In this document: positions 26,780 to 44,392 of the stretch, in pieces
Layout: each line of letters opens with the position of its first letter
Numbering within the stretch: position 1 is the stretch's first letter
NCBI GenBank assembly: GCA_965248195.1
Contig: CBDFIQ010000002.1
Span: 2,816,001-2,880,000 of the forward strand
Origin: Longimicrobiales bacterium
Lineage (GTDB): Bacteria; Gemmatimonadota; Gemmatimonadetes; Longimicrobiales; Gaopeijiaceae
DNA: 64,000 nt
Direction: 5' to 3'
Translations under genes and position numbers: made by a program
Notes under the pieces: generated by a model
Told to the model about the DNA's origin: nothing
The model's database searches: none
The model's input: only the letters and a program-made list of their open reading frames with translations

Positions 26780-26968
26780 ATGACGACTTTGACGCTGGAC
26801 GCGATGCGGACGCTCCACGGGGCCGTGATCCCGAGACGAAGAAGAGGGGCATACTGTGGGTTCCTGGTAGGTGCCTTGGCGATGGCCCTTCTAACGGGAA
26901 ATCTGGTCGCCGCCGCGGCTGTCTACACGTTCACACCCGTTACGTGTCTCTTCGATTACGCGATGTAA
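26780..26968 (+). CDS. Double-glycine-type precursor peptide A
   Basis: AGGAG RBS; leader MTTLTLDAMRTLHGA; hydrophobic core with C-x29-C-x6. Confidence 0.75.
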   Translation: MTTLTLDAMRTLHGAVIPRRRRGAYCGFLVGALAMALLTGNLVAAAAVYTFTPVTCLFDYAM

Positions 26969-27017
26969 CGGCCCGGAACAGACACCATGATTCACTTTCA
27001 CCATGAGGATCAGGTCC

Positions 27018-27212
27018 ATGCGAGAGCTTACGATACGTCAAATGTCCGAAGCGGATGGGGGGATAGGTTTCAGAGGCGGCTTCTTTAGGGGGTTTCTTTG
27101 CGGCGCGGCGCTCTTCGCTGCGTTCGCGATCACCCCGACTACCAGTGGGCTCGCACGAGCGGTCATCTATACCACAGCGATAGGAGTCTGTGGCAACGCC
27201 TTTGCCGTCTAG
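27018..27212 (+). CDS. Double-glycine-type precursor peptide B
   Basis: Leader MRELTIRQMSEADGG; hydrophobic core with C-x29-C-x6. Confidence 0.8.
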   Translation: MRELTIRQMSEADGGIGFRGGFFRGFLCGAALFAAFAITPTTSGLARAVIYTTAIGVCGNAFAV

Positions 27213-27218
27213 CAGGTC

Positions 27219-27249
27219 GGGGGCCGGGTCCGTCGGGCACCCGGCCCCC
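27219..27249 (+). terminator. Stem-loop after the precursor genes
   Basis: Perfect 11-bp stem GGGGGCCGGGT / ACCCGGCCCCC with a weak U tail. Confidence 0.65.
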
Positions 27250-27302: not shown

Positions 27303-28934
27303 ATGAGTACCGCATACAGCAACCTGATTCTGGTCACCCGGGTCAAGCTTCGCATCGTGTGGCGCGAATTCGTCCACAGCGTACACACAACGTTCGAGGG
27401 CAAGTTCGCCGTCGCAGCCATGGTCGCGGCTCCTTTCTTGATGAAGAGTATGTTGGTCTCGAGTGCCCTCCGGCAGGCGAACTTGAGCGAGGACGCCGGA
27501 TGGGTCGTCCTGTGGACCGCCCACCTCTCAATGATGGCAGCGGCCGTTTCGGCCGTCGCCGCCCGGACGGCACGCTCCCTCATCGTGTGCCGACGCGACG
27601 ACTCGCTCGCTCAATACCCCCACGCGAGGCGGGGTCTAGCAGCCTTTCATCTGTGGGGAGAGATCGTGGCCGCCATGGCACTCCCAATCTTCGGCTTCTT
27701 CTACGTGTTCTATGGTGCTTTGGTGAGCAAACTTACGGCGCACCCCGTCATGGGGACGCACCTCCACGTGATCGCGCACGCCGTCGTTTCCCTGGCCCTG
27801 GGAGCGGTGGCGTACCGGCTCACGCTACGCTCGCTCGAGCGGCGACCGACCTGGGGACCAGCGATTTTCCACCTAAGCACGCTCCTCGCTATGTTCGCCT
27901 TCGTCGGGATGGTGGGGGGCCCCCAGTTGCTGCTGGATTTCGCTCCCGATCGAATCGATGAGCTCCGATCGTTCTTCATGGGAGCCGGGCGGTTCTACCC
28001 GCCCGTCACAGCCCTGCTTGGGTCAGCGGTGCGGCCGGGGCCACTATTGGGCTGGTTGATCGGGGTCGGGGTGGCAGGAGCGATCGCCATCGGTGCGGCG
28101 GCGCCTCTCGTTCAGACGCCAAGCACCCTCTTGCTCGGAGAGGTCGAAGGCCCGGTAAATCGTCGTTTCAAGAGCGTTTTTGGGGGTCGGAAACGTATGT
28201 CGACCCACCGAGTGGTTCACGGTGCTCGAATGTTCTTCTTGAAGGACGTCCTCCTAGCCACGGTCCGTTCCCCTCAGGCGTTCATCAGGCGGCAGGGCCT
28301 ATTCCTCGGCACGGTGGGCTTGGCTTCCTACCTGGCCTGGGGGCTCCTTCAGGAGGGCCTCATAGGGGAAACCGAAGCCGAGGCCCTCGTTTTGGGTCTG
28401 GTGGTCTTCCTGGTCTGTGCGGCGGCATATCTCCGAGGACTCGGCTCCCTCGGATCGGAGGGCCCGGCGTTGGCGCTGCTTCGCCCCGTCGTGCGGCCCT
28501 CCGATCTGATGGGCTACAAAACGGTCGCCGCGTTGGCTTCCGTCGTGCCCGCTGGACTCGTGTACGCCGCCGCCGCCGGGGCGCTATCCCAAGCCCTGGA
28601 CATGAGACCCGGTCCAGTGGTCACGGCAGGAATCGGGGGTCTCACAGCCGTGGTTGCGGCCGCATTCGCGGTCTCATTGGCCTTTCTTTTCCCGGACTTC
28701 GAGCGGCGAAACGCTCTCGTGCCCGGCGCCTCGCGAATGGGGAGATACACCTTCATTTCGGCCGCCCTCTACGGCGCTGGAGTCGTCGCGGGTCTCCGGT
28801 GGATGACACGATCGGGGATGCTCGCATCGAGCATGTTCGTCCCGAGCCTCATGACGACGGCCGGAGTGGGGATGGCCTTGACGGTAGTCTTGATGACGTT
28901 GGCTCTTCGCCGATTCCCTCACCTGGAGTACTGA
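27303..28934 (+). CDS. Multi-TM ABC exporter permease
   Basis: About 12 hydrophobic segments in two halves; immediately upstream of an ABC ATPase. Confidence 0.65.
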   Translation: MSTAYSNLILVTRVKLRIVWREFVHSVHTTFEGKFAVAAMVAAPFLMKSMLVSSALRQANLSEDAGWVVLWTAHLSMMAAAVSAVAARTARSLIVCRRDDSLAQYPHARRGLAAFHLWGEIVAAMALPIFGFFYVFYGALVSKLTAHPVMGTHLHVIAHAVVSLALGAVAYRLTLRSLERRPTWGPAIFHLSTLLAMFAFVGMVGGPQLLLDFAPDRIDELRSFFMGAGRFYPPVTALLGSAVRPGPLLGWLIGVGVAGAIAIGAAAPLVQTPSTLLLGEVEGPVNRRFKSVFGGRKRMSTHRVVHGARMFFLKDVLLATVRSPQAFIRRQGLFLGTVGLASYLAWGLLQEGLIGETEAEALVLGLVVFLVCAAAYLRGLGSLGSEGPALALLRPVVRPSDLMGYKTVAALASVVPAGLVYAAAAGALSQALDMRPGPVVTAGIGGLTAVVAAAFAVSLAFLFPDFERRNALVPGASRMGRYTFISAALYGAGVVAGLRWMTRSGMLASSMFVPSLMTTAGVGMALTVVLMTLALRRFPHLEY

Positions 28935-28947
28935 CTGGAGTACCGAA

Positions 28948-29709
28948 ATGAGCGAGACGCCTCACATCAGCGTGGACGCGCTCACCAAGCGCTTCGGAGC
29001 GATCACTGCCGTGGCCGACCTCAGCTTGTCGCTCGAGGCGGGTCAGATCGTGGGCCTCCTCGGCCCCAATGGGGCCGGCAAGACCACGACCCTCAACACC
29101 ATCATGGGCCTGAAAACGCCCACATCAGGCGACGTGCGTATCAACCGCGTGAGCGTGCAATCGCCTGAGATCGCGTCGGTGAGGCGCGGAATCGGGTACC
29201 TGCCCGAACAACCGGTGTTGTACGACTATCTGACCGGCCGGGAGTTCGTCCAATTCCTAGGGCAGCTCTACGACGCCGCCTTGGACCTCGATGACTGGCT
29301 TACCGACAACCTCGACGCCCTCGAAATGGGCCAAGACGCTGATCGCTTGATCCGGACATACTCGTTGGGCATGCGCAAGAAGATCGCGTTCCTGGCGGCC
29401 ATGGTGCACCGGCCGAACATCCTGATCTTCGACGAGCCGACCGGCGCGCTGGATGCGGCGAGCGCCAGAGTGGTCAAAGACCAAATGCAGATCGCACGTG
29501 ATGGCGGGGCTCTCGTCCTGTTCACGACTCATGTCATGGAGATCGCGGAGCGCCTCGCCGATCGAATCGCGATCCTCAATCACGGCAGTTTGGTAGCGGA
29601 CGGAACGTTGAAAGAGATCAAGGAAGCGCACGCACGTTCCGGGCGTGATACCCTCGAGGAGATCTTCCTCAGGCTCACGGCTTCGCAGCCGGAGCACACA
29701 TCAAGATGA
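28948..29709 (+). CDS. ABC transporter ATP-binding protein
   Basis: GPNGAGKT, YSLGM, LIFDEP, TTH. Confidence 0.95.
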   Translation: MSETPHISVDALTKRFGAITAVADLSLSLEAGQIVGLLGPNGAGKTTTLNTIMGLKTPTSGDVRINRVSVQSPEIASVRRGIGYLPEQPVLYDYLTGREFVQFLGQLYDAALDLDDWLTDNLDALEMGQDADRLIRTYSLGMRKKIAFLAAMVHRPNILIFDEPTGALDAASARVVKDQMQIARDGGALVLFTTHVMEIAERLADRIAILNHGSLVADGTLKEIKEAHARSGRDTLEEIFLRLTASQPEHTSR

Positions 29710-31768
29710 GAGGACGGACCCGATCGTGGATGCGATTCCTCGGATTCGCGCCCCGCTACCCGGTGGTTCGGCAATACGACCGTGTCGACTGCGGCCCCGC
29801 CTGCCTCCTCGCCGTCCTTCGATTCCACGGCGGCGACGCCGGACTGGCACCGGTTCGCTCTGCAGCCGGGACGGATGCAAGCGGAACCAGCCTCCTCGGG
29901 CTCTACCAGGCCGCGGACACGCTCGGATTCGATGCGAGAGGCGCGACGGGAGATTACGAGTCCCTGAGGAATGTGAAGCTACCCTGCATCGCACACGTCG
30001 TCGTCGAGGACGGCCCCCACTACGTGGTGGTCTATGAGGCGGGAGAACACGAGCTCAGGGTGGCGGACCCAGCGCGCGGGCTGGTTCGGCTGACTCGTAC
30101 CGAATTCGAGCGAATCTGGGTGCAGGGCGCGGTGCTTCTCCTCGACCCCGGCCCGGAGCTTCACTCCGCGCCGCCCCCCCATTGGTTCCCATGGGTCCTG
30201 CGCCACTGCCGGGGAGCACAGGGATGGCTCGTACAATCCGTGTTCCTCGGACTGGTGTACACGGCTTTGGGGCTCGTGACGGCATTCGTGGTCCAGAGGC
30301 TCGTCGACGACTTCATTCCGGGTGGCCATGGGAACCGGATCATCGCGGCCGGAGGGATTCTGCTCGGACTACAGCTGATTCGGGCGATGGTGGGCTATCT
30401 GCGTCAACACTTCCTGGTCGGGCTCGGCAAGCGAGCGGCCACGGCCATCGCCCAGGAGTTCATCGAGCACCTCTTTTCTCTTCCATCCCGGTTCTTCGAC
30501 ACCCGGAAAAGAGGTGACATCGCGGCCCGCCTCCAGGACGCTTCCCAAGTTCAGAACGCGGTCCTCCAAATTCTGGGGAGCACAACCTATAGATGTCCTC
30601 GTCACCGTACTCTCACTCGGCGTCGTATTCCATTTCTCTGCCGAGATGGGGTGGGTCACACTTCTCCTGGTGCCGCCCTACGCCCTGGTGGCCAGTATGG
30701 TCGCCGCTCGGCTCCATCATGAACATCACGAGACGCTGGGAGCATACGGGCGGCTCCAAGGCTCCTACATCGACACGCTCGACGGTATCGAGGCGGTGCG
30801 GAGGACCGGGGCCACCGCGATCTTCTCGAAGGCCACGCTAGCCCTCTTCGGCATGTTCCAATCCAAAGTCGAGCGGCTCGGACACACGCAAGCCGCCGCC
30901 GTATCGAAGCTGGAAGCCGTGGGTGGAGTGTTCCTCACCGCTGTGCTGACTACTGGGGCCATGCTCGTGCCTCCAGCGAGTGACCGAGGGTTTCTTCACG
31001 CTTCAGGCCGGATCGGCGGCGGCCCAGCGGCTGCAGGACGTCTTGCTCACCCAGCCCGAACGGAACACCGGTACGAATAGTTTCCGGATGGAAAGGGAGT
31101 TGAGACTGGAGAACGCGACGTTCCAGTGGTCCCCCGACGAGCCTCTTCTTCAAGGCACGAATCTCACGCTCCAGCGGGGCAGGATCACCGGGCTGAGCGG
31201 GGCCAACGGCAGTGGCAAGAGTACGTTGATCCACCTCCTCAATCGCCGGTACCCACTCACCGAAGGAGTGCTCACGATAGACGGCGTGCCCGCCGAAGCG
31301 ATCGACCTTCACAGCTATCGCCGAAACGTGGCGCTCGTTCCTGAAGCGGTGAAAATCTTCAACGGCACGCTCGGAGCCAATCTCACGATGGCGGCCCCGG
31401 GCCTTCCGCACGAGGCCCTCTTGGAGCGCCTCCGTGAATTGTCCCTCGAATCGTTCCTGGGCCGTTTCAGAGCCGGCCTCGCCACCGAGGTGGGTGAAGA
31501 CGGCCGACGACTTTCCGCGGGGGAGCGTCAAATGATCGGTCTGGTTCGAGCCCTCTTCGGAAAGCCCGCGGTACTGATCGTAGACGAGGGGTTCAACGCG
31601 CTGGATCCGCAGGCCTTCGCACTTGCCGTGCGCCTGGTGAGGGCACAGGCTCGTAGCGGCGCCGTGCTGCTCGTCTCGCACGCTCAGCAGCTGATCTCCC
31701 TGGCGGACGAGCGCTTCATCCTGGAACGCGGAACCGTGCTCCCCGATACGCGCTCCAGGGCCGCATGA
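29706..31768 (+). pseudogene. C39 peptidase-containing ABC transporter (PCAT), interrupted
   Basis: QYDRVDCGPACL, HYVVVY, VADP; TMD; GANGSGKST, LSAGE, LIVDE. Frameshift at ~30590 and a second break with apparent deletion at ~30970. Confidence 0.85.
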
Positions 31769-32439
31769 ACAAGCGGCTTCCCGACCATGAGGGCACCACG
31801 CGCCTGGGTACCCAATCGGTATGGCCGATGTTAGCCATCATGACTGCGATTTGGATGGCGCTTGCTCTCTACACCAATGAACGCGTGCTCACGCCTCAGG
31901 TATTGGCACATTTGGCCAGGCAGGGAGACGGCATGGCGATGCCGGCAGCTCAATTGGACAACCTCCAGCGTCTGGAATTGCTGTCTTATGGATTGTTACC
32001 CCTCTTCCTAACCCTGCGGATCGCGTTGACTGCCTTGGTTCTCCAGCTCTTCACGATGCTCCTTTCCGCGGAGATCGCCTATCGGGAGCTCTTCCGAGCG
32101 TCGCTTTGGGGATTCGGCGCAGTGATGTACGGCATGTTCGTGCAAACGGTGAGGCTCGATCTGATGGGGCCCGATCTCACGATAGCGGATCTCACCGTGG
32201 TCCCTGACTCACTCGCCGCCCTGATCTTGAACCCGGCACCTACCCTCACGATAGGATACAATGCACTGAGCCTTCTTAATCTTCACGGTCTCCTGTGGAT
32301 CGGCATCATCTTCACGTACTTCCGCTTTGAATGCCGCTTCACCCCTCGTCGCGCCCTACTCGTCCCCCTGGCCGGTTGGGCCACGATTTCGCTCGCACAA
32401 CTGGGGCTCCAGGCCTTCACAGCCCAGATCCTGGGTTGA
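31765..32439 (+). CDS. Membrane protein, Yip1-like topology
   Basis: ATGA overlap with the PCAT stop; about 5 hydrophobic segments. Confidence 0.55.
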   Translation: MNKRLPDHEGTTRLGTQSVWPMLAIMTAIWMALALYTNERVLTPQVLAHLARQGDGMAMPAAQLDNLQRLELLSYGLLPLFLTLRIALTALVLQLFTMLLSAEIAYRELFRASLWGFGAVMYGMFVQTVRLDLMGPDLTIADLTVVPDSLAALILNPAPTLTIGYNALSLLNLHGLLWIGIIFTYFRFECRFTPRRALLVPLAGWATISLAQLGLQAFTAQILG

Positions 32440-32574: not shown

Positions 32575-34098
32575 CTACAGCGTCTTGAGATACTCAATGA
32601 GTGCCCGCCGATTCTCGTCCGTGCGGATGAGCGACCAGTAGTCATGACCAGCGCTCGAGCTGCCCGGGCGTGCTGTGTTGAACCAGTCGCGATCATTCCC
32701 GTACCGGCGAAGAAGCTCGACCTCTTCGAGCCGCCCGTCTTCCTGTCGGCGGTAAAGCGGCTGGCCGATGCGCTCGCGATCGAGCGTTCGTGCCGCCATG
32801 ACTTCGAAAATCCGTGGTCGCTCCGACATGGGTCCCAGCAGGTGATGGAGGGTGGGTACACTTCCGTTGTGCAGGTAAGGGAAGTTGGCCCACACGCCTG
32901 TGAGCGGCGTCGCCGCATACCCGCGACTTCTGCTGAGCTCGCCCTCCCTCGCCAGCGGGCTTTGCTCGAAGGCCTCGATGAACTGCCCTGAGACGAGCTC
33001 GAGTCGCGCAGGATCGGTACCCACATCCGAATGCACGCCGGGCCACAAGACATTGCCCTGCCCATCATATAAGCCGTGGCACTCCGAGCAGCCGATTTCG
33101 CGTGAGTTGAACAGCGCACGGCCCCGTTCCGCCAGAACCCGGTCGATGTCGTACGGGTAGGGCGGCGGCCTCAAATCGCCAATGACCGACTCGAACTCCT
33201 GCTTGATGCGCGGGATGACGACGTCGACCAGGGCGTCGAACCCTCGGTCCTTTTCCAACTCCATCGATGACGCCATCAACGGATAGCGACCATGGAAGCT
33301 CCCGTCGCTGTACCAGCGTTCGATCGGCATCTTCGCTGCCGTGTGCCAGAGCGGCGGCGTCTTGACGTCACCGCGGCCGACGTCGTCCACTGAAGGCATC
33401 CGGTTGCCATTGCTCCGCATGAACAGTTCGACATGCGAGGCCGAGAACGCGGTGGATCTCCCCCGGGTCTTTGAGTCGATCTTGTCGTGATGATGGCTAT
33501 TCAGGATCCTGTTGGCGTCGGCCGCGACGTCGTACTCAGGCGTGCCCCGCAGCCGCCCGCGCCACGCCCGGCTCGTCAATCGCTTCAGTGACTCGCCCAA
33601 CCACAAGTCGTCGAATGTCTTTGCGCCTGCCCCAAAATAGGCAACGCCATCGATTTCAGCGGTGTGACACACCAAGCAGTTCACCGTCCACATGAGGGGC
33701 TGGCCGGATCCGGCGTTTGGCGCCATGCCGAACGCCGGCACGAGCGGGTTGTCGGGCCAAAGCACAAGACCGACGTTGTCGCGGATGATGGCGTCGACAT
33801 CGCCCACCACGGCCTGTGTGATCACGTTGCTGTCGAATAGCGACTGGGGGATCCAGGCCGTTGCGTCGTACGTCTCATACATAAAGCTGGAGAGTAACTT
33901 CAGACGCTCCTCCTTCGGGCGAGGATCGGTCGGGTCCCAGTTGATTACGAGGTTGCGGATCGCGCTTTCGAAGGTCATGGAAAGCGCCTCTTCGGACATG
34001 GCCGTGGCTGCCTTCTCGTCCTGCGGCGCACAAAACGCGATGACCACGAGCGAAGTTACGGCGGCGAAACACAACGATTGATGAGCCACCTTGGTCAT
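32575..34098 (-). CDS. Secreted diheme c protein, RoxA/bCcP-MauG superfamily-like
   Basis: CLVCH and CSECH; VGTDP; YAATPLTGVWANFPYLHNGSVPTL; GHDY...IEYLKTL; GGAGGAG RBS. Confidence 0.8.
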   Translation of the reverse strand: MTKVAHQSLCFAAVTSLVVIAFCAPQDEKAATAMSEEALSMTFESAIRNLVINWDPTDPRPKEERLKLLSSFMYETYDATAWIPQSLFDSNVITQAVVGDVDAIIRDNVGLVLWPDNPLVPAFGMAPNAGSGQPLMWTVNCLVCHTAEIDGVAYFGAGAKTFDDLWLGESLKRLTSRAWRGRLRGTPEYDVAADANRILNSHHHDKIDSKTRGRSTAFSASHVELFMRSNGNRMPSVDDVGRGDVKTPPLWHTAAKMPIERWYSDGSFHGRYPLMASSMELEKDRGFDALVDVVIPRIKQEFESVIGDLRPPPYPYDIDRVLAERGRALFNSREIGCSECHGLYDGQGNVLWPGVHSDVGTDPARLELVSGQFIEAFEQSPLAREGELSRSRGYAATPLTGVWANFPYLHNGSVPTLHHLLGPMSERPRIFEVMAARTLDRERIGQPLYRRQEDGRLEEVELLRRYGNDRDWFNTARPGSSSAGHDYWSLIRTDENRRALIEYLKTL

Positions 34099-34157
34099 TT
34101 GATCTCCTCCCAGGACAGTGTGGGTGTCGACTGGAAAGATGCGCTTCCTCAAATCAC

Positions 34158-36316: not shown

Positions 36317-36401
36317 GGGATCAGTGACTCATCGCGTAGACGACCATGTTTGTAGGCGTCATTTAGCTCGACATCCGTGGCAAGCTTGCACACATTACCG
36401 G

Positions 36402-38048
36402 ATGTTGGGGAAGCCACTAATTAGATCCAGCACGCCGATCGGCTCGTGGACTGGGCCGCGGGAGCGCCTTCTCACGACCCCCCAAGAGTTTGCGCAGGGG
36501 CTCCGTCGTGTCGGAAAGCCCCTGTACGCCGTGGACCATGGAGACGCGTTCGCGCTCGCGGACAGCGGATCCGTTGAGCTGGGTGCAGATCCTCAGGTTC
36601 ACGGACTTTCCCTCCTCGCGCTGAGCCCCCCCTGCAGACCCCAGAATTTTGGATCCGCCAGCTTCGCCAGAGACCATGGCGTCCGTTTCTGTTATCTGGC
36701 CGGAGCCATGGCAAACGGCGTCGGCTCCGCGGAACTCGTCGAGGCGATGGGCCGTGCCGGCATGCTCGCCTTCTTTGGAGCCGCGGGTTTGGGGCCGGAT
36801 ACAGTCGAAGACGCCATCGACCGGATCTCCACTCGTTTGGGCGATCTCCCCTGGGGATTCAACCTGATTCACAGCCCATACGAGCCGCTGCTCGAGGACG
36901 CCGTCGCCGACCTTTACGTGCGCCGCGGAGTGACTCGGGTTTCGGCTTCCGCCTACATGGATCTGACGCTCCCGCTCGTGCGTTACCGGCTGCACGGCAT
37001 TCGTTCCGACGCCTCGGGGCGGGTCGTGACTCCGAATCGACTCGTCGCCAAGGTCTCCCGCGTCGAAGTTGCGCGTAGGTTTCTCGCCCCGGCTCCAGTC
37101 AAGATGTTGGCCGAGCTCGTGACCCGAGGAGACCTGTCGGAGGAGCAGGCGCGGATGGCCGAAGCCATCCCCGTCGCCCAGGATCTGACCGTCGAGGCGG
37201 ATTCCGGAGGCCATACGGACAATCGTCCCGCCATCGCCCTGCTTCCCACCATGCTGGCGCTGCGCGATCGAATCCAGGCCAAGTACGACTATTCGGTCCC
37301 CCTCCGGGTGGGGTGCGCTGGCGGAATATCGACGCCACATTCGGTGGCCGCAGCCTTCGCCATGGGAGCGGACTACGTCATGACCGGGTCGGTCAACCAG
37401 GCGTGCCGGGAGGCCGGAACGTCCGACGCGGTACGCCAGATGCTGGCTCAGGCGGAGCAAGCCGATGTCGCGATGGCCCCGGCAGCCGACATGTTCGAAA
37501 TGGGCGTACGGTTGCAGGTGCTCAAGCGTGGAACGATGTTTCCTATGCGGGCCCATCGTTTGTATGATTTATACCGGGCCCATAGCGGGCTTGAAGACAT
37601 ATCCGACGACGACCGGAAGAACCTCGAAGACACGATTTTCCGTAGGCCGTTGGAGGAGATCTGGAACGAGACACGACGTTTTTGGGAGCAGCGCGACGTC
37701 ACCCAGACGGAGAGGGCCGAGCGTGATCCGAAGCATCGGATGGCGCTGGTCTTTCGGTGGTACCTCGGGATGTCGTCCCGATGGGCCAACCGTGGCGAGC
37801 CGGGGCGGGAAATGGACTACCAAGTATGGTGTGGCCCGGCCATGGGAGCGTTCAACGAATGGGTTCGGGATAGTGATCTCGATCCCTGGGAGAATCGGCG
37901 TGCGGTCACAGTGGCGCACAACATGTTACATGGAGCTGCGGTCATCACTCGGGCCGCCGTTCTACGTAGCCAGGGGGTGGACCTTCCCGCCACATGCGTG
38001 GATGTCCTGCCCCGTGGTCCAGGCGAACTTGAGGAACTGCTGACTTGA
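36402..38048 (+). CDS. pfaD: PfaD-family enoyl reductase
   Basis: GAMANG, NLIHSP, AKVSRVEVA, EADSGGHTDNRP, APAADMFEMG, YQVWCGPAMG; start codon uncertain. Confidence 0.92.
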   Translation: MLGKPLIRSSTPIGSWTGPRERLLTTPQEFAQGLRRVGKPLYAVDHGDAFALADSGSVELGADPQVHGLSLLALSPPCRPQNFGSASFARDHGVRFCYLAGAMANGVGSAELVEAMGRAGMLAFFGAAGLGPDTVEDAIDRISTRLGDLPWGFNLIHSPYEPLLEDAVADLYVRRGVTRVSASAYMDLTLPLVRYRLHGIRSDASGRVVTPNRLVAKVSRVEVARRFLAPAPVKMLAELVTRGDLSEEQARMAEAIPVAQDLTVEADSGGHTDNRPAIALLPTMLALRDRIQAKYDYSVPLRVGCAGGISTPHSVAAAFAMGADYVMTGSVNQACREAGTSDAVRQMLAQAEQADVAMAPAADMFEMGVRLQVLKRGTMFPMRAHRLYDLYRAHSGLEDISDDDRKNLEDTIFRRPLEEIWNETRRFWEQRDVTQTERAERDPKHRMALVFRWYLGMSSRWANRGEPGREMDYQVWCGPAMGAFNEWVRDSDLDPWENRRAVTVAHNMLHGAAVITRAAVLRSQGVDLPATCVDVLPRGPGELEELLT

Positions 38049-41000
38049 GCGATCGGAATGAAGATCGGGCTGCGGCCCAGTCACCCATAGCCATCGTCGG
38101 CATGTCCTGCCTGTTCCCGGGTGCGAGTGGCCTGCGGGAGTACTGGGCTAACGTGCGGGACGGTTTCGACGCGATCACGGACGTTCCCGCGAGCCATTGG
38201 AGCGTGGGCGACTATTTCGACGCCGACCCCAGCGCCCCAGATATGACGTACGGGCGTCGCGGCGGGTTCCTCGACGCGGTCGACTTCGACCCGATGGGCT
38301 TCGGGATCTCACCGCGGGACCTCGAGGCCACCGACTCCACGCAGTTGCTCGGCATGCACGTCGCCCGAGAAGCGCTGAGGGATGCCGGCTACGGGGCCGA
38401 CGGCCTGGTTTTCGACCGTGAGCGCACGAGCGTGATCCTCGGTGTGAGCGGAACGCTTCCTCTGGTGATCCCTTTGGGGGCCCGCCTCGGCCACCCGATT
38501 TGGCGACGGGCTCTGGCTGAGGCAGGCGTCGATCCGGAGACCGGCGAGGACGTGATCGCTCGGATCGCAGACGGTTATGTGCCATGGCAGGAGAACTCCT
38601 TCCCCGGACTTCTGGCCAACGTGGTGGCCGGCCGAATCGCCAACACGCTCGATTTGCACGGAACCAACTGCATCGTCGACTCGGCGTGCGCCTCGTCATT
38701 GAGTGCCATCCATCTGGCATCCCTCGAGCTCGAAGCGGGTCGGGCCGACATGGTCCTGAGCGGTGGCTTGGACACCTTCAACGACATCTTCATGTACATG
38801 TGCTTCTCGAAGACGCCCGCGCTTTCGGCGTCGGGGAACGCACAGCCGTTCAGCCAGCAGGCGGACGGTACGATTCTCGGCGAAGGTGTGGGCGTCGTGG
38901 CGCTCAAGCGATTGGCGGACGCCGAGCGGGACGGTGATCGCATCTACGCGGTCATCAAGGGCCTCGGGTCGTCGAGCGACGGGAAGGGTCAGGCGGTCTA
39001 CGCGCCCTCTCCCGAAGGCCAAGCACGGGCGCTACGCGAGGCGTATCGAAATGCGGGCGTGACGCCGGACACGGTCGGGCTCGTCGAGGCCCACGGTACG
39101 GGCACCGTCGTGGGAGACGCCACCGAGGCACGGGGCCTTACCAGCGTCTATGGAGATACCAGCCGGGAGGGAGCGTGGTGCGCGTTGGGCTCGGTCAAGT
39201 CGATGATCGGACATACCAAAGCGGCCGCAGGAGCGGCCGGACTGATCAAGGCCGTGATGGCGCTCCACCACAAGATTCTCCCGCCCACGATCAAGGTCGA
39301 GATACCCAACAAAGCTGTGACGCCCGGGGAGACGCCCTTCTACGTCAATACCGAAAAGCGTCCATGGGTGCCCGAGGGCGGTCATCCTCGCCGGGCCGGA
39401 GTGAGTGCATTCGGCTTCGGCGGTAGCAACTTCCACTGCGTGGTCGAAGAGTACGAGTCGCGGGCAGCCGCTGTGGATTGGGACGGCCGGGATCAGATCT
39501 TCGCCTTCTCGGCCGAAAGCCGCGAGGCACTGGCGTCGAAACTGAAGGACTTCGATGCAGGATCGGAGTGGGCGGAGATCCGGGGGCGGGCGGCCGAAAC
39601 GAGGGAAGGCTTCGATGCTTCGCACGAAGCCCGGTTGCTCATTGTGGCCGAGCGGGACGGGAAGTCCCCGGCAGACCTCATCGCCCTGGCGCTGGTCCGG
39701 CTGGAGGAATCCCCGTCCGCGTGGAGTTTACCGCAGGGAATCTTTTTCGGGTCGGGTTCGTCCAAGGGCGGATGGGCCGCCTGTTTCCCCGGCCAGGGGG
39801 CCCAATACGTCGGCATGCTACGCGAGGTCGTGTGCCGTTTCCCCGTTGCCGCCGACGCCCTCGCCGCCGCAACCGAAGCCACGCCGGGGTTGGCCGACAA
39901 GATTTATCCACACCCCGCGTTCGACGATGATGGCAGAGCCGAACAGGAGGCCGATCTCAGGGCCACCCAGAGCGCGCAACCAGCCCTCGGCGCGGTGAGT
40001 CTGGGTGCTTTCCGCGTGCTCGAGCAGTTCGGAATCGCCCCCGATGCCACGTGCGGGCACAGCTACGGCGAATTGGTCGCGTTGTGCGCCGCGGGGCGCA
40101 TGAGCCCCTCGGAGCTGCACGGGCTTTCGAGCCTCCGGGGTCACCTCATGACCGTGGGCGACGGCGATCGCGGCTCGATGCTGGCCGTTTCTGCCGAGTG
40201 CGATCGAGTCCAAGCCCTCATCCGGAAGCACGAGCTCGATTTGGTGGTAGCGAATCATAACGCCCCGCGTCAGGTGGTCCTGTCGGGTGTGACCGACGAG
40301 ATTCATCGGGCAGCGGACATTCTGTCCGACGAGGGGATTCGGACCAAGAAGCTGGCCGTTTCGGCCGCCTTTCACAGCCCCTTGGTGGCCGAAGCCGCCG
40401 AACCGTTCACCGAACACGTCAAAGGCGTCAAGTTGACGAGAAGTGCGGTGCCGGTGTACGCGAACACGACCGGCACGAGGTACCCGGCCACTCCCGCTGG
40501 AGCACGGAAGGTGCTCTCCAGGCAGTTGGCCTCACCCGTGGACTTCGTGCGGTGCGTGAAGGCCATGTTCGACGACGGCGTCCGCACCTTCATCGAGGTC
40601 GGACCCAGCGGCCGGCTCTCCGGGCTCATCCGGGAGATCCTGGCCGACGAGGAGATCACGGTCGCGGCGGTGGACGCCTCGAGCGGACAGCGCCCGGGCC
40701 TGGTAGATCTGGCCCGCATGCTCGCTCAACTCGCCGCGGCCGGTCATGCGGTCGCCCTCGACCGGTGGGACGAAGGTGCCCTCGAGGCCTGGCGGCGCGA
40801 AGCAGCGCGAGAAAAACCCGCCCTGACGGTGAAGATCAGCGGAGCGAATCACGTGACTGAGCGCCCCAAGCGTCCCCCGAGGGCCGCGGCACCGACAGCC
40901 GTACCGACTGCGGCCGCGCCGGTTGCCTCCGCGCCTCCCGCTTTCGAGCCAGCTACCACGGTGACTTCCGACCCCGAGGTCCTTGCCGAAGCGATGCGAG

Positions 41001-44000
41001 CGAGCCAAGCGAGCTTGGCCGCACTCGTACGGCTCCAGGAACAGACCGTCGAGGTACATCGACAGTTCCTGGAATCGCAGGAGCGGACGATCCAAGCCAT
41101 CATCCAGCATCAGGGTCTGGCCGCTCCCGGTGAGGCCGCTACGACAGCCATACCCGCCACTGCACCGGCCGAAACATCGGTCGCCGCACTGGATGACGCA
41201 GGGGTGGAGGCGATCCCCGGCGTGGCGGCAGCGCTGCTCTCGGTGGTTTCGGAAAAGACGGGTTACCCAGAGGAGATGCTCGACCTCTCGATGGGGTTGG
41301 ACGCCGACCTCGGCATCGATTCGATCAAGCGGGTCGAGATCCTTTCAGCTTTGCAGGAGCGCCTTCCTGAGGCCCCCGCCATCACCCCGGAGCACCTGGG
41401 TGAAATCCAGACCCTCGGCCAGATCGTCGATTTCTTGGGTGGATCCCCGGAGGCCGCTAAGCCCGAAGCGCCGGCGCCCGAAGCACCGGCGCCCGAGGCT
41501 CCGACGGTGGACCCTGTGGCGCCAGAGCCACACGAAGCGAGCGGATCAACCACGAATGGTGTCGTCGCGGATACGGCAAACGGGGCTCGCGGCTCCGCGG
41601 ATATTGCGGAGATTCTCTTGGGCGTCGTTGCCGAAAAGACAGGCTACCCCGTGGATATGCTCGATGTCTCGATGAACCTCGACGCCGACCTCGGCATCGA
41701 TTCCATCAAGCGGGTCGAGATCCTGTCCGCCCTTCAGCAGGTCCTTCCAGAGGCCCCCGTCGTGGCCCCGGATCAGTTGGGGGAGTTGCGAACGCTAAGC
41801 CAGATCGTCGACCTCCTGTCGAACGAGGCGGAATCCGTCCCTGCGACTTCTTCGCCCGAACCAGCGGAGCACGTTGCGGAGGGCGCGGCTGATGAAATCC
41901 CGACCAGGGCCGACGATCGGTCCACGTCAGCCGGCATAGAGCGTTTCGTTCCCACGCTCCACCCCGTTCAGGGTACGGGTGACCCCATCGGGCTCCCGGC
42001 AGGCTCCAAGATCTGGGTGACCAAGAGTGGCGATGTCCTATCGGGCCAGATTGTGGAGGAGCTGAGCGCACAGGGGTTCGCAGCGGAAGAGATCGAGTTG
42101 AGCCAAGATGGACATGACCCACCGGACGAACTGGCCGGACTCATCGTCGTCGTGCCCCCTCAGGTCACAGACGAGGACATCCTCTTCGGCTTTGGACGAA
42201 TGCGAGCGATGGCGCCCGTTCTTCGGCGGGCGGCGCTTCAGGGTGGTGCGCTCCTGTGCAGCGTCACCGCCCTCGGCGGTGGTTTCGCCCTCGACGCTCC
42301 ACCGCCCGAAGACGTCGATCCAACCGGTGGCGCCTGGGGGGGGATGCTGAAGACGGCGGCCGCCGAATGGACCGACGTCAATTGCCGGACGATCGACGTC
42401 GATCCCTCCCGGGAGGGTCTCGCCGCGGAGATCGTGCGCCATGCGCTGTCCCAAGGGCCCGTGGAGATCGGCCTGGGTCCCGACGGTCCCCAAACGGTGG
42501 TCCTCGAACCCCAATCGGTTCAGCCTGTGGAGGCGTCGTTCCCCGGCTCGGACGACACGGTGTTGATTACCGGAGGGGCCCGTGGTGTGACCGCCGAGGT
42601 CGCGGTAGCGATGGCGGAGGCCGGGCAGCCGCGTCTCATCCTCATGGGGCGTAGTCCGGAGCCCGAGAAGGAGCCCGATTGGCTGATCGGCCTCAACGGC
42701 GAGGCCGAGATCAAACGGGCGATCCTGACTCACGTGGGACCGAGTATCACCCCCCAGGAGGTTCAGGCCGAATTCAACCGCATCCGCGCTGGTAGGGAGA
42801 TCCGCCGCACCATCGAGCGTATCTCCAAGGCCGGTTCGGAGGTCGCATACCGGTCGGCCGATGTGCGAGACGCCGACGCGGTCCGTCGCACGCTCGCTCC
42901 ACTCATCGAGGAATACGGACCCGTCACGGGGCTTGTACACGGAGCCGGCGTCCTGGCGGACCGAAGTATCGAGGACAAGAGCGACGATGATTTCGCCCGC
43001 GTCTACGGGACCAAGGTCGGGGGGCTCCGCTCGGTGCTGAAGGCCATAGGGGACGGCCCTCTCAAAGCGATGGTGTTTTTCTCGTCCTCGACCGCGCGCT
43101 TCGGACGCCGCGGGCAGGTCGACTACGCGGCGGCAAACGAGGTCCTCAACAAAGTGGCCCGGACGGAAGCAGCAAAGCGGGACGGGTGCCGCGTCGTGTC
43201 GGTCAACTGGGGACCGTGGGACGGAGGAATGGTGACTCCCGGCCTGAGAAGCGTTTTCGCCGACGAAGGGATCGAGGTGATCGGCATGCGTAGGGGTGCG
43301 GCCTACCTCCTCGACGAGATCGCCACAGCCGACGGGCCCGCCGAGGTGCTCATTCTGGGGAGCGGATCGCAGGTCCCTGAGGTCGGATTGCTCCCAGTCC
43401 CGGGAGGGAATGGCGTACACACGGCCGCGAGCGGCGCGGGCACCGGGAGGAACGGGACCGGAGCCGCCGAAAACGGAGTCACGGCTCCCGAAAACGGGGC
43501 CGCAGCTGGGCCTTTCGCGGAGTTACCTACGGTGTTCGAGCGCACCATCACCACGGACACGCATGAATTCATGACGTCGCACGTGCTCGACGGCCGTGCG
43601 GTGCTACCGGCCGCGATGACGCTCGAGTGGCTGGCCCACGCCGCCCTCCATGGAAACCCCGGATTACGCTTCGTTGGCGTCGACGACCTACGTGTATTCA
43701 GGGGAGTCCTGGTTCAACCCAACGAGTCCTTGCGGGTCCGTGTTTGCGCGGACAAGGCACAAAAGCGGGGCGACGAATTCCATGTCGTGGCCGAGCTCTC
43801 CAGTGGCGGCAGCAATGGGCGCCGGGTTCTGCACGCGCGAGCCGCGGTCGTGTTGGCCGCCAATCCACTAGAAGCCGGTACCGCCAAGACCTCGAGCGAC
43901 CTCCCCGCCCTGGATCAGTCGATCGAGGCGATTTACGCCGAAACGCTCTTCCATGGTCCCAAAATGCGAGGACTGGTGGAGGTCGAAAGTTGTGGGGACG

Positions 44001-44392
44001 CTGGGCTGGTGGCACGCTGCCGCGTGGCTCCACCTCCGCGGGACTGGATGGACGAGCCGGTGCGGAGCCGGTGGATCGCCGATCCGCTCGCCGTGGACAG
44101 TGGCCTCCAGGCGATGATCGTCTGGACCTCCGACCGTGTGGGCGAGTTGTCATTGCCCTCACGGTTCACGCGCTATCGCCAGTTCGTATCATCCTTCCCC
44201 AAGGAGGGGGCCCGCATCGTCATCGACGTGCACGAGCGGACGAACGGAAAGGTCGTTTCCGATATCGATTGGATCGGCGATGACGGAGCGTTGATCGCCC
44301 GCCTGGAAGGGTACGAATCCGTGGTGGACTCTTCTCTGGGCAAGGCGTTCCGTCACAACCGACTCGACGAGAGCGCACCCACGAAGGCGTAA
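38045..44392 (+). CDS. pfaA: PfaA-like iterative PKS/FAS (KS-MAT-ACP-ACP-KR-DH)
   Basis: DSACASS, EAHGTGT, GHTKAAAG; GHSYG, AFHS; two LGIDSIKRVEI ACP motifs; TGGARGVT, YAAAN; HVLDG-x3-LP. Confidence 0.92.
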   Translation: MSDRNEDRAAAQSPIAIVGMSCLFPGASGLREYWANVRDGFDAITDVPASHWSVGDYFDADPSAPDMTYGRRGGFLDAVDFDPMGFGISPRDLEATDSTQLLGMHVAREALRDAGYGADGLVFDRERTSVILGVSGTLPLVIPLGARLGHPIWRRALAEAGVDPETGEDVIARIADGYVPWQENSFPGLLANVVAGRIANTLDLHGTNCIVDSACASSLSAIHLASLELEAGRADMVLSGGLDTFNDIFMYMCFSKTPALSASGNAQPFSQQADGTILGEGVGVVALKRLADAERDGDRIYAVIKGLGSSSDGKGQAVYAPSPEGQARALREAYRNAGVTPDTVGLVEAHGTGTVVGDATEARGLTSVYGDTSREGAWCALGSVKSMIGHTKAAAGAAGLIKAVMALHHKILPPTIKVEIPNKAVTPGETPFYVNTEKRPWVPEGGHPRRAGVSAFGFGGSNFHCVVEEYESRAAAVDWDGRDQIFAFSAESREALASKLKDFDAGSEWAEIRGRAAETREGFDASHEARLLIVAERDGKSPADLIALALVRLEESPSAWSLPQGIFFGSGSSKGGWAACFPGQGAQYVGMLREVVCRFPVAADALAAATEATPGLADKIYPHPAFDDDGRAEQEADLRATQSAQPALGAVSLGAFRVLEQFGIAPDATCGHSYGELVALCAAGRMSPSELHGLSSLRGHLMTVGDGDRGSMLAVSAECDRVQALIRKHELDLVVANHNAPRQVVLSGVTDEIHRAADILSDEGIRTKKLAVSAAFHSPLVAEAAEPFTEHVKGVKLTRSAVPVYANTTGTRYPATPAGARKVLSRQLASPVDFVRCVKAMFDDGVRTFIEVGPSGRLSGLIREILADEEITVAAVDASSGQRPGLVDLARMLAQLAAAGHAVALDRWDEGALEAWRREAAREKPALTVKISGANHVTERPKRPPRAAAPTAVPTAAAPVASAPPAFEPATTVTSDPEVLAEAMRASQASLAALVRLQEQTVEVHRQFLESQERTIQAIIQHQGLAAPGEAATTAIPATAPAETSVAALDDAGVEAIPGVAAALLSVVSEKTGYPEEMLDLSMGLDADLGIDSIKRVEILSALQERLPEAPAITPEHLGEIQTLGQIVDFLGGSPEAAKPEAPAPEAPAPEAPTVDPVAPEPHEASGSTTNGVVADTANGARGSADIAEILLGVVAEKTGYPVDMLDVSMNLDADLGIDSIKRVEILSALQQVLPEAPVVAPDQLGELRTLSQIVDLLSNEAESVPATSSPEPAEHVAEGAADEIPTRADDRSTSAGIERFVPTLHPVQGTGDPIGLPAGSKIWVTKSGDVLSGQIVEELSAQGFAAEEIELSQDGHDPPDELAGLIVVVPPQVTDEDILFGFGRMRAMAPVLRRAALQGGALLCSVTALGGGFALDAPPPEDVDPTGGAWGGMLKTAAAEWTDVNCRTIDVDPSREGLAAEIVRHALSQGPVEIGLGPDGPQTVVLEPQSVQPVEASFPGSDDTVLITGGARGVTAEVAVAMAEAGQPRLILMGRSPEPEKEPDWLIGLNGEAEIKRAILTHVGPSITPQEVQAEFNRIRAGREIRRTIERISKAGSEVAYRSADVRDADAVRRTLAPLIEEYGPVTGLVHGAGVLADRSIEDKSDDDFARVYGTKVGGLRSVLKAIGDGPLKAMVFFSSSTARFGRRGQVDYAAANEVLNKVARTEAAKRDGCRVVSVNWGPWDGGMVTPGLRSVFADEGIEVIGMRRGAAYLLDEIATADGPAEVLILGSGSQVPEVGLLPVPGGNGVHTAASGAGTGRNGTGAAENGVTAPENGAAAGPFAELPTVFERTITTDTHEFMTSHVLDGRAVLPAAMTLEWLAHAALHGNPGLRFVGVDDLRVFRGVLVQPNESLRVRVCADKAQKRGDEFHVVAELSSGGSNGRRVLHARAAVVLAANPLEAGTAKTSSDLPALDQSIEAIYAETLFHGPKMRGLVEVESCGDAGLVARCRVAPPPRDWMDEPVRSRWIADPLAVDSGLQAMIVWTSDRVGELSLPSRFTRYRQFVSSFPKEGARIVIDVHERTNGKVVSDIDWIGDDGALIARLEGYESVVDSSLGKAFRHNRLDESAPTKA
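41461..41505 (+). repeat. 15-nt x3 tandem repeat (PEAPA) in the inter-ACP linker
   Basis: gcccgaagcgccggc / gcccgaagcaccggc / gcccgaggctccgac. Confidence 0.75.

Follow-up and report, generated by a model that had tools for sequence, protein, structure and literature searches.

Two tandem genes, A and B, are read here as precursors of an unmodified two-peptide bacteriocin, in a locus whose exporter and membrane accessory protein have homologues in bacteroidetocin loci; the probability of this reading is put at about one half. The A/B family is real and is undescribed in the literature searched, yet it is a variant of a known system. The genes lie in a stretch of 64,000 nucleotides (the window) from a Longimicrobiales bacterium of the Gemmatimonadota, in tandem ahead of genes for a permease, an ATPase, a peptidase-containing exporter and a membrane protein.

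26780..26968, plus strand: precursor A, 62 aa, with a 15-aa double-glycine-type leader (GA) and a 47-aa hydrophobic, cationic core; Cys26 and Cys56.
27018..27212, plus strand: precursor B, 64 aa, with a 15-aa leader (GG) and a 49-aa hydrophobic core; Cys28 and Cys58.
27219..27249, plus strand: perfect inverted repeat of 11 bp, G+C-rich, in the interval from B to the permease gene, no T run behind it; read by eye and absent from the terminator list.
27306..28934, plus strand: multi-TM ABC-type permease, 542 aa, 10 segments above the hydropathy threshold.
28948..29709, plus strand: ABC ATPase, partner of the permease, 253 aa; PF00005 E 1.3e-31; dN/dS 0.14-0.18.
29706..31768, plus strand: C39 peptidase-containing ABC exporter (PCAT) in three pieces; Q23, C29, H105 and D121 present.
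31765..32439, plus strand: membrane protein of about five TM segments (TM protein), 224 aa, Yip1/YknW-like, 4 segments above the threshold; homologue of the bacteroidetocin 'five-TM' protein.

A Shine-Dalgarno-like purine-rich site lies 8 nt upstream of both A and B. Among the ORFs of the 4.86 Mb genome, a leader-plus-two-Cys pattern derived from the family matched solely these two, and dN/dS against three relatives was 0.39-0.79 for A and 0.39-0.74 for B, below 1 in all six comparisons. The genome-wide uniqueness of the pattern and the dN/dS values rule out a frame artefact or chance ORFs, and by these sequence criteria A and B are real genes. No additional copy of either was found in the window's genome. 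A promoter scan at the locus returned 0 sites, and the contigs of two RNA-labelled runs gave little or no cover of A/B. The inverted repeat behind B could make the peptide mRNA more stable or lower the level of read-through.

A sequence-only reading of the window had described two precursors on one exact scaffold, and the window ORFs largely bore this out. Both leaders carry L at -12, M at -7 and GA or GG at residues 14-15; both peptides have CG, two Cys 29 residues apart and six residues past the last Cys; and identity is low, with 10 of 37 positions identical when anchored on the first Cys. The Arg-rich core start claimed for both applies to A, with four Arg ahead of the first Cys, but not to B, with two.

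Profile searches yielded 85 B-type homologues (77 representatives) and 67 A-type homologues, the nearest named loci being from Longimicrobiales/Gemmatimonadota; elsewhere in the phylum, the B profile matched 2 of 400 genomes. Frameshifted, shortened, extended and Cys-lacking rows were omitted from the alignments (4/67 A-type and 12/85 B-type, the window's near-identical entries being counted). In the retained rows, Cys-lacking ones having thus been removed, both Cys are invariant (64/64 A-type, 75/75 B-type). Their spacing varies. The 85 B-type proteins have gaps of 31 (28 proteins), 29 (27), 34 (20) and 32 (5), and also of 36 and 28, with three lacking a pair, and gaps span 20-40 across the 77 B representatives; over the family as a whole they lie between about 21 and 36. 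The A-type gap is mostly 29, with 35 in five and with three rows scored at 39-40 owing to a Cys in the leader. A gap of 29 followed by a tail of 6 was present in 47/64 A-type and 15/75 B-type proteins. Only 4 of the 22 Gemmatimonadota pairs show exactly 29/6 in both partners (10 have a gap of 29 in both), and other clades carry A/B gaps of 29/31, 35/34, 28/32, 21/21 and 28/24; judged from these sequences, the exact common C-x29-C-x6 scaffold is therefore a local clade trait and not, as had been proposed, a defining one. Homologues with a different Cys spacing were among the refuting conditions set by the earlier reading, and this condition thus applies in part. The (V/I)YT motif likewise holds for the window pair but not family-wide ([VI]YT in 18/64 A-type and 2/75 B-type proteins), and the Arg-rich start does not extend beyond the window as a rule, at least two K/R preceding the first Cys in 34/64 A-type and 4/75 B-type proteins. 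B-type cores are mostly neutral. GxxxG motifs occur in all 64 A and all 75 B cores, a match of low specificity in Gly-rich peptides.

The two-gene pair itself is conserved, as the earlier reading had suspected. One A-type and one B-type gene were assigned in each of the 22 Gemmatimonadota two-peptide loci examined, using leave-clade-out profiles; the A/B labels had been set by similarity beforehand, which makes the assignment in part circular. Two Acidobacteriota genomes have the pair as well, and either gene can come first, depending on the clade. The two peptides are homologues of each other (hhalign 96%). Because the mean within-locus A-B alignment score (16.5) is close to the between-clade A-B score (14.9) and below those of A-A (26) and B-B (56), the sequences support, without proving, an old duplication that has long been maintained in either gene order. 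Between clades the signal for the A type is weak: for several A peptides the scores on the two profiles lie within 3 bits of each other. The pair of Tenacibaculum gallaicum gave a margin of -1.7 and no A/B call, and a poorly resolved peptide tree (59 columns) needed two label changes.

The homology of A and B, together with a second B in L029 and a damaged second A in L050, would also fit two independent single-peptide bacteroidetocin-like toxins that use one common export system and widen the target range, an explanation regarded as possible but doubtful. The bacteroidetocins tested, A, C and D, were active as single synthetic peptides (Coyne et al. 2019, PMC6671954), and when peptides were counted by pattern in the 80 best of 228 TM loci from Bacteroidota, 33 loci had one, 27 two, 7 three or more and 13 none; pairing would thus not be needed in the wider system. 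Independent toxins do not readily explain why A plus B persists in all 22 Gemmatimonadota and both Acidobacteriota loci through deep divergence and swapped order, nor why the partners lengthen jointly, with gaps of 35 and 34 in one clade and with both extended in one Acidobacteriota locus (L227). A two-peptide bacteriocin remains the preferred reading.

No Pfam or NCBIfam family matched A or B, in keeping with the possibly undescribed peptide family of the earlier reading. The helical hairpins that had been proposed are predicted for both by AlphaFold2: H24-39/H42-61 for A (pLDDT 85), with the two Cys approximately equidistant from the turn, and H21-37/H44-62 for B (pLDDT 63.5). A fold search of the A model against the PDB gave 0 matches at E <= 0.001, and in a PDB sequence search the best E values of the A and B profiles were 0.32 and 0.74, at the level of the leader only. 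Typical peptide pheromones are short, and the 47-49 aa cores, strongly hydrophobic with GRAVY values of 0.96 and 1.17, are unlike them. This speaks against A and B being PCAT-exported signals that are sensed or taken up via the permease/ATPase, an improbable alternative for which LuxR- or AraC-type regulators adjoining five of the FCB loci scanned (L053, L054, L059, L070, L084) and weak, leader-driven BlpC matches in 7/75 B-type proteins can be cited. No sensor kinase or regulator was found in the window's locus, and the homologous Bacteroides locus makes a toxin (PMC6671954).

The ATPase, PCAT and TM genes overlap start-to-stop. The permease had no Pfam or NCBIfam match; its nearest Atlas clusters were ABC_tran_2/12TM_1 permeases (0.96-0.97), and its role is likely self-protection or release. 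No small immunity gene was found in the locus; the permease/ATPase pair is the candidate for immunity. Modified RiPPs (lanthipeptide, radical SAM, glycocin) were considered and rejected: no modifying enzyme was present among the flanking ORFs scanned, and the flanking genes vary between relatives. A RoxA-like multi-haem cytochrome c gene lies beside the locus on the opposite strand (window 32575-34152, PF21419 E 2.8e-17), a position not kept in relatives. Further along is what we take to be a PfaD/PfaA-type polyunsaturated fatty acid synthase-like cluster (window 36324-44392); genes like these also flank the locus in L021-L026 and L037.

Linkage of the peptides to a C39 PCAT holds in the window and in its relatives, but the exporter is broken here, which the sequence-only reading had missed. 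Alignment with three intact 709-aa orthologues shows an additional base at 30588 and a deletion of 68 bases following 30968. Across 30588 the window is identical to a 378-nt contig of run X1, which is probably the source sample. The extra base is absent from contigs of X5, X8, X16, X18 and X2, the last of these being another run of the sample used for X1. The break is therefore strain-level, and an intact strain living alongside, or a minor allele, may be present. The X18 contig also carries extra sequence at 30968. The dN/dS of the broken pieces is low (0.14-0.25), so the damage would be recent. Because this is the sole C39 gene in the window's genome, its strain probably cannot export A and B, and this copy of the locus is ill suited as a model of the system. 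Among 17 related loci, at least 12 have an unbroken PCAT frame (691-760 codons) and at least 4 a split one, and the remaining one is probably split too. Decay of the locus is frequent in this family, with split PCATs, deletions, and insertion elements replacing peptides or the TM gene (L020, L022, L026, L027, L032, L034, L035, L036); the second Cys is lost in L031. Some of the breaks in related loci may be assembly errors.

Ahead of the double-glycine leader, six or seven of the B-type proteins have a basic N-terminus followed by hydrophobic residues, signal-peptide-like as judged by hydropathy only. Two Acidobacteriota loci with such peptides show a different gene set.

L227:5174-9055 (Acidobacteriota): C39 peptidase, extended B, extended A, permease, ATPase, in this order.
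L230:5022-8860 (Acidobacteriota): second genome of the same family, same order; frameshift-rich assembly.

The stand-alone C39 peptidase of L227 (196 aa, PF03412 E 1.8e-33) has an N-terminal hydrophobic anchor. Its permease matched at HMM E 5e-66 and its ATPase is 58% identical to that of the window. Both peptides have signal-peptide-like extensions and retain their double-glycine leaders; the extended B is 79 nt shorter than P0232 in that assembly. A full-length PCAT had no match in the L227 genome, and the two TM matches there were weak and outside the locus. No TM gene was found in 12-13 kb of the PCAT-less Acidobacteriota loci, where the permease/ATPase stays with the peptides. This arrangement, found in 2/401 and 2/16 genomes, suggests maturation in the periplasm, an ABC pair tied to the peptides and a TM protein tied to the PCAT; the two genomes are related and count as one event, not as independent proof. 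Metagenome scans with signal-bearing peptides gave no confirmed locus for P0083 and three weak, unrelated loci for P0225.

Such leaders are recognised at -12, -7 and -4 and at GG/GA/GS (PMC6363468). In the A/B family positions -12, -7, -4 and -2 are well kept, but position -1 is not G, A or S in 24 of the 75 B-type leaders (11 E, 8 R), some of them in loci with intact PCATs. Many leaders ending in GE, GR, GM, GL or GD were seen in alignment A6 and in L024-L026, L030, L032 and L037. The exporter site may be relaxed in these cases, or the peptides may remain uncut. The latter would suit membrane hairpins that stay in the envelope and act in the producer, as a self-limiting toxin or as a modulator of the envelope or of a transporter. 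Neither HlyD nor TolC genes were found near the locus, the 7 HlyD_3 and 15 OEP matches of the genome lying elsewhere, and strains that make bacteroidetocins are self-inhibited and may set the toxin free through lysis (PMC6671954). The chance of envelope-resident peptides is nonetheless considered slim: the leader positions are well kept, and the Acidobacteriota variant, which lacks a PCAT, still retains a C39 peptidase of its own.

As to the formation of the predicted disulfide, 34 of the 74 PCAT loci carry a thioredoxin-fold gene and 17 carry a MauE-like one. Dedicated oxidoreductases occur in the Gemmatimonadota loci L049, L050, L055, L068, L072 and L076, and no homologue was found in the window's locus or genome. 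That genome (91.8% complete) gave no DsbB or VKOR match and has four Thioredoxin_4 matches, possible oxidases. Ignavibacteria-type loci (L059, L065, L075, L088, L090, L092) carry a MauE-like membrane protein and a thioredoxin-fold protein between the TM gene and the peptide, likely a dedicated disulfide-forming pair by sequence; nothing relevant to this combination was present in the literature searched.

For the preferred two-peptide bacteriocin, the following course may be envisaged. As C39 biochemistry would have it, the PCAT would cut after residue 15 and move the cores across the inner membrane with help from the TM protein. Since the locus has no HlyD gene, the cores would end up in the periplasm, where each is predicted to fold into a helical hairpin with one disulfide, made in many relatives by the dedicated thioredoxin-fold protein and in the window's strain by general periplasmic oxidases, if at all. 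The two hairpins may then jointly attack a target in the envelope of related diderms, and the permease/ATPase would protect the producer or free the hydrophobic peptides from its membrane. In the window strain, with its broken PCAT, the peptides are likely no longer exported; the ABC pair is intact.

More speculatively, and with the odds put well against it, these loci could define a class of two-peptide, disulfide-closed hairpin toxins of diderms, matured in the periplasm by one of two interchangeable routes (a PCAT with the five-TM accessory, or a Sec signal with a membrane-anchored periplasmic C39 peptidase), with an own ABC transporter that pulls the hairpins from the producer's membrane. 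If so, this would be the first two-component and the first self-protected bacteroidetocin-type system, and the five-TM protein would be a PCAT subunit replacing HlyD. The Acidobacteriota variant is a natural experiment on the role of that protein. Both cores are short enough for synthesis, which makes synergy and disulfide dependence directly testable.

The export module links the locus to a described system. In the four-gene bacteroidetocin layout, a five-TM protein, a peptide with a 15-aa double-glycine leader, a thiol oxidoreductase and a peptidase ABC transporter occur together; in Bacteroides the TM protein and the oxidoreductase are required for secreted activity and neither protects (PMC6671954). 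Bacteroidetocins, proposed as class IIf, kill Bacteroidetes via BamA (Matano et al. 2021, PMC8546649). A comparable set was found in T. gallaicum DSM 18841 (L206): two tandem GG two-Cys peptides, the sole such TM match of that genome, a split thiol oxidoreductase and a PCAT. From the fit of the tag order and of the frameshifted oxidoreductase in supplement 4 of PMC6671954, we infer that L206 is the listed bacteroidetocin region of this species, whose TM protein has 42% similarity to that of bacteroidetocin A. A TM profile built solely from Gemmatimonadota proteins matched the L206 TM protein at HMM E 2.5e-14, blastp reached that protein at E 1.2e-6, and the Gemmatimonadota and Bacteroidota TM profiles matched each other (hhalign 89%). 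The N-part of the window PCAT is 35% identical to the T. gallaicum PCAT over 269 aa, and B is 40% identical to one T. gallaicum peptide over the first 35 aa, much of that leader. Given the homology of the TM protein and PCAT to bacteroidetocin loci, the idea of an undescribed kind of system is thus not supported, and by sequence the window locus represents one branch of the bacteroidetocin (class IIf) system.

A C39-domain scan returned 74 loci in Gemmatimonadota, KSB1, Calditrichota, Ignavibacteria, Bacteroidota, Marinimicrobia and others. The TM protein adjoins the PCAT in 54 of them and the window's permease family in 17, all Gemmatimonadota; other ABC permease/ATPase pairs adjoin several non-Gemmatimonadota loci. 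The TM protein was present in 17 of 200 genomes of the window's family, and its profile matched 43 of 401 Bacteroidota genomes. The best 80 of the 228 Bacteroidota TM loci include a thioredoxin-fold gene in 78 and a PCAT in 74, and 93 of the 110 peptides found there by pattern are two-Cys, 19-49 apart. In a high-GC Bacteroidota genome, a 57-aa four-Cys peptide (L138:2269-2445; 15-aa leader, 42-aa core) of the bacteroidetocin A/B size format adjoins TM, thioredoxin-fold and PCAT genes.

Bacteroidetocins have been believed to be restricted to Bacteroidetes and to lack immunity genes, with an unexplained exit route. The window locus carries their export module into Gemmatimonadota and related phyla and adds a fixed pair and a candidate self-protection transporter. 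Its leaders (15 aa, GA/GG) fall within the 15-16 aa double-glycine leaders of the class, its two-Cys cores of 47 and 49 aa compare with 42-48 aa for the closest five (PMC6671954), and PCAT and five-TM homologues are adjacent. No membrane fusion protein is among the four bacteroidetocin genes, nor is one in the window locus, and the listed T. gallaicum region likewise has two tandem two-Cys peptides. The window locus differs in its host, in the fixed A+B pair with an extra permease/ATPase, and in that the thiol oxidoreductase of most regions is absent in the window's clade. Bacteroidetocins A and B have four Cys and the window peptides two.

Class II microcins of the MccV type share a Gram-negative host, a 15-aa double-glycine leader, a PCAT and, in some members, disulfides; they are exported by a PCAT with a membrane fusion protein and TolC (PMC12219008). 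In contrast, no fusion protein lies near the window PCAT, the 7 HlyD_3 matches being elsewhere, the window cores are shorter and paired, and PF17508 matches are only faint. No paper on the Gemmatimonadota A/B family was found in the literature searched, although the supplements of a RefSeq-wide IIBacFinder survey may list such precursors (PMC12648112); in passages of a survey of marine Gemmatimonadota, the peptides named are confined to Nif11-type bacteriocins, microcins and lasso peptides (PMC11316326).

The nearest Atlas clusters of B are bacteriocins (PF10439/LafA, 0.91-0.92). PF10439 matched 16/75 B-type and 6/64 A-type proteins weakly, the best of 12 homologues tested reaching 20.9 of the 27.1 bits of its cut-off, and TIGR03949 also stayed short of its cut-off (best E 0.018). 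Several class IIb/PF10439 peptides are also closed by Cys. Besides the Atlas and weak HMM likeness, the window family has GxxxG motifs and hydrophobic, predicted helical cores in common with the class. Class IIb systems such as lactacin F, brochocin-C, thermophilin 13 and ABP-118 likewise have two adjacent double-glycine precursors and a dedicated peptidase ABC transporter, and both peptides are needed in approximately equal amounts for membrane permeabilisation (PMC2850506). The window differs in its diderm host, its bacteroidetocin-type accessory genes and the small immunity gene, which was not found. By analogy, the system would resemble a class IIb pair in its working, set on a bacteroidetocin export module, and is assigned to neither family.
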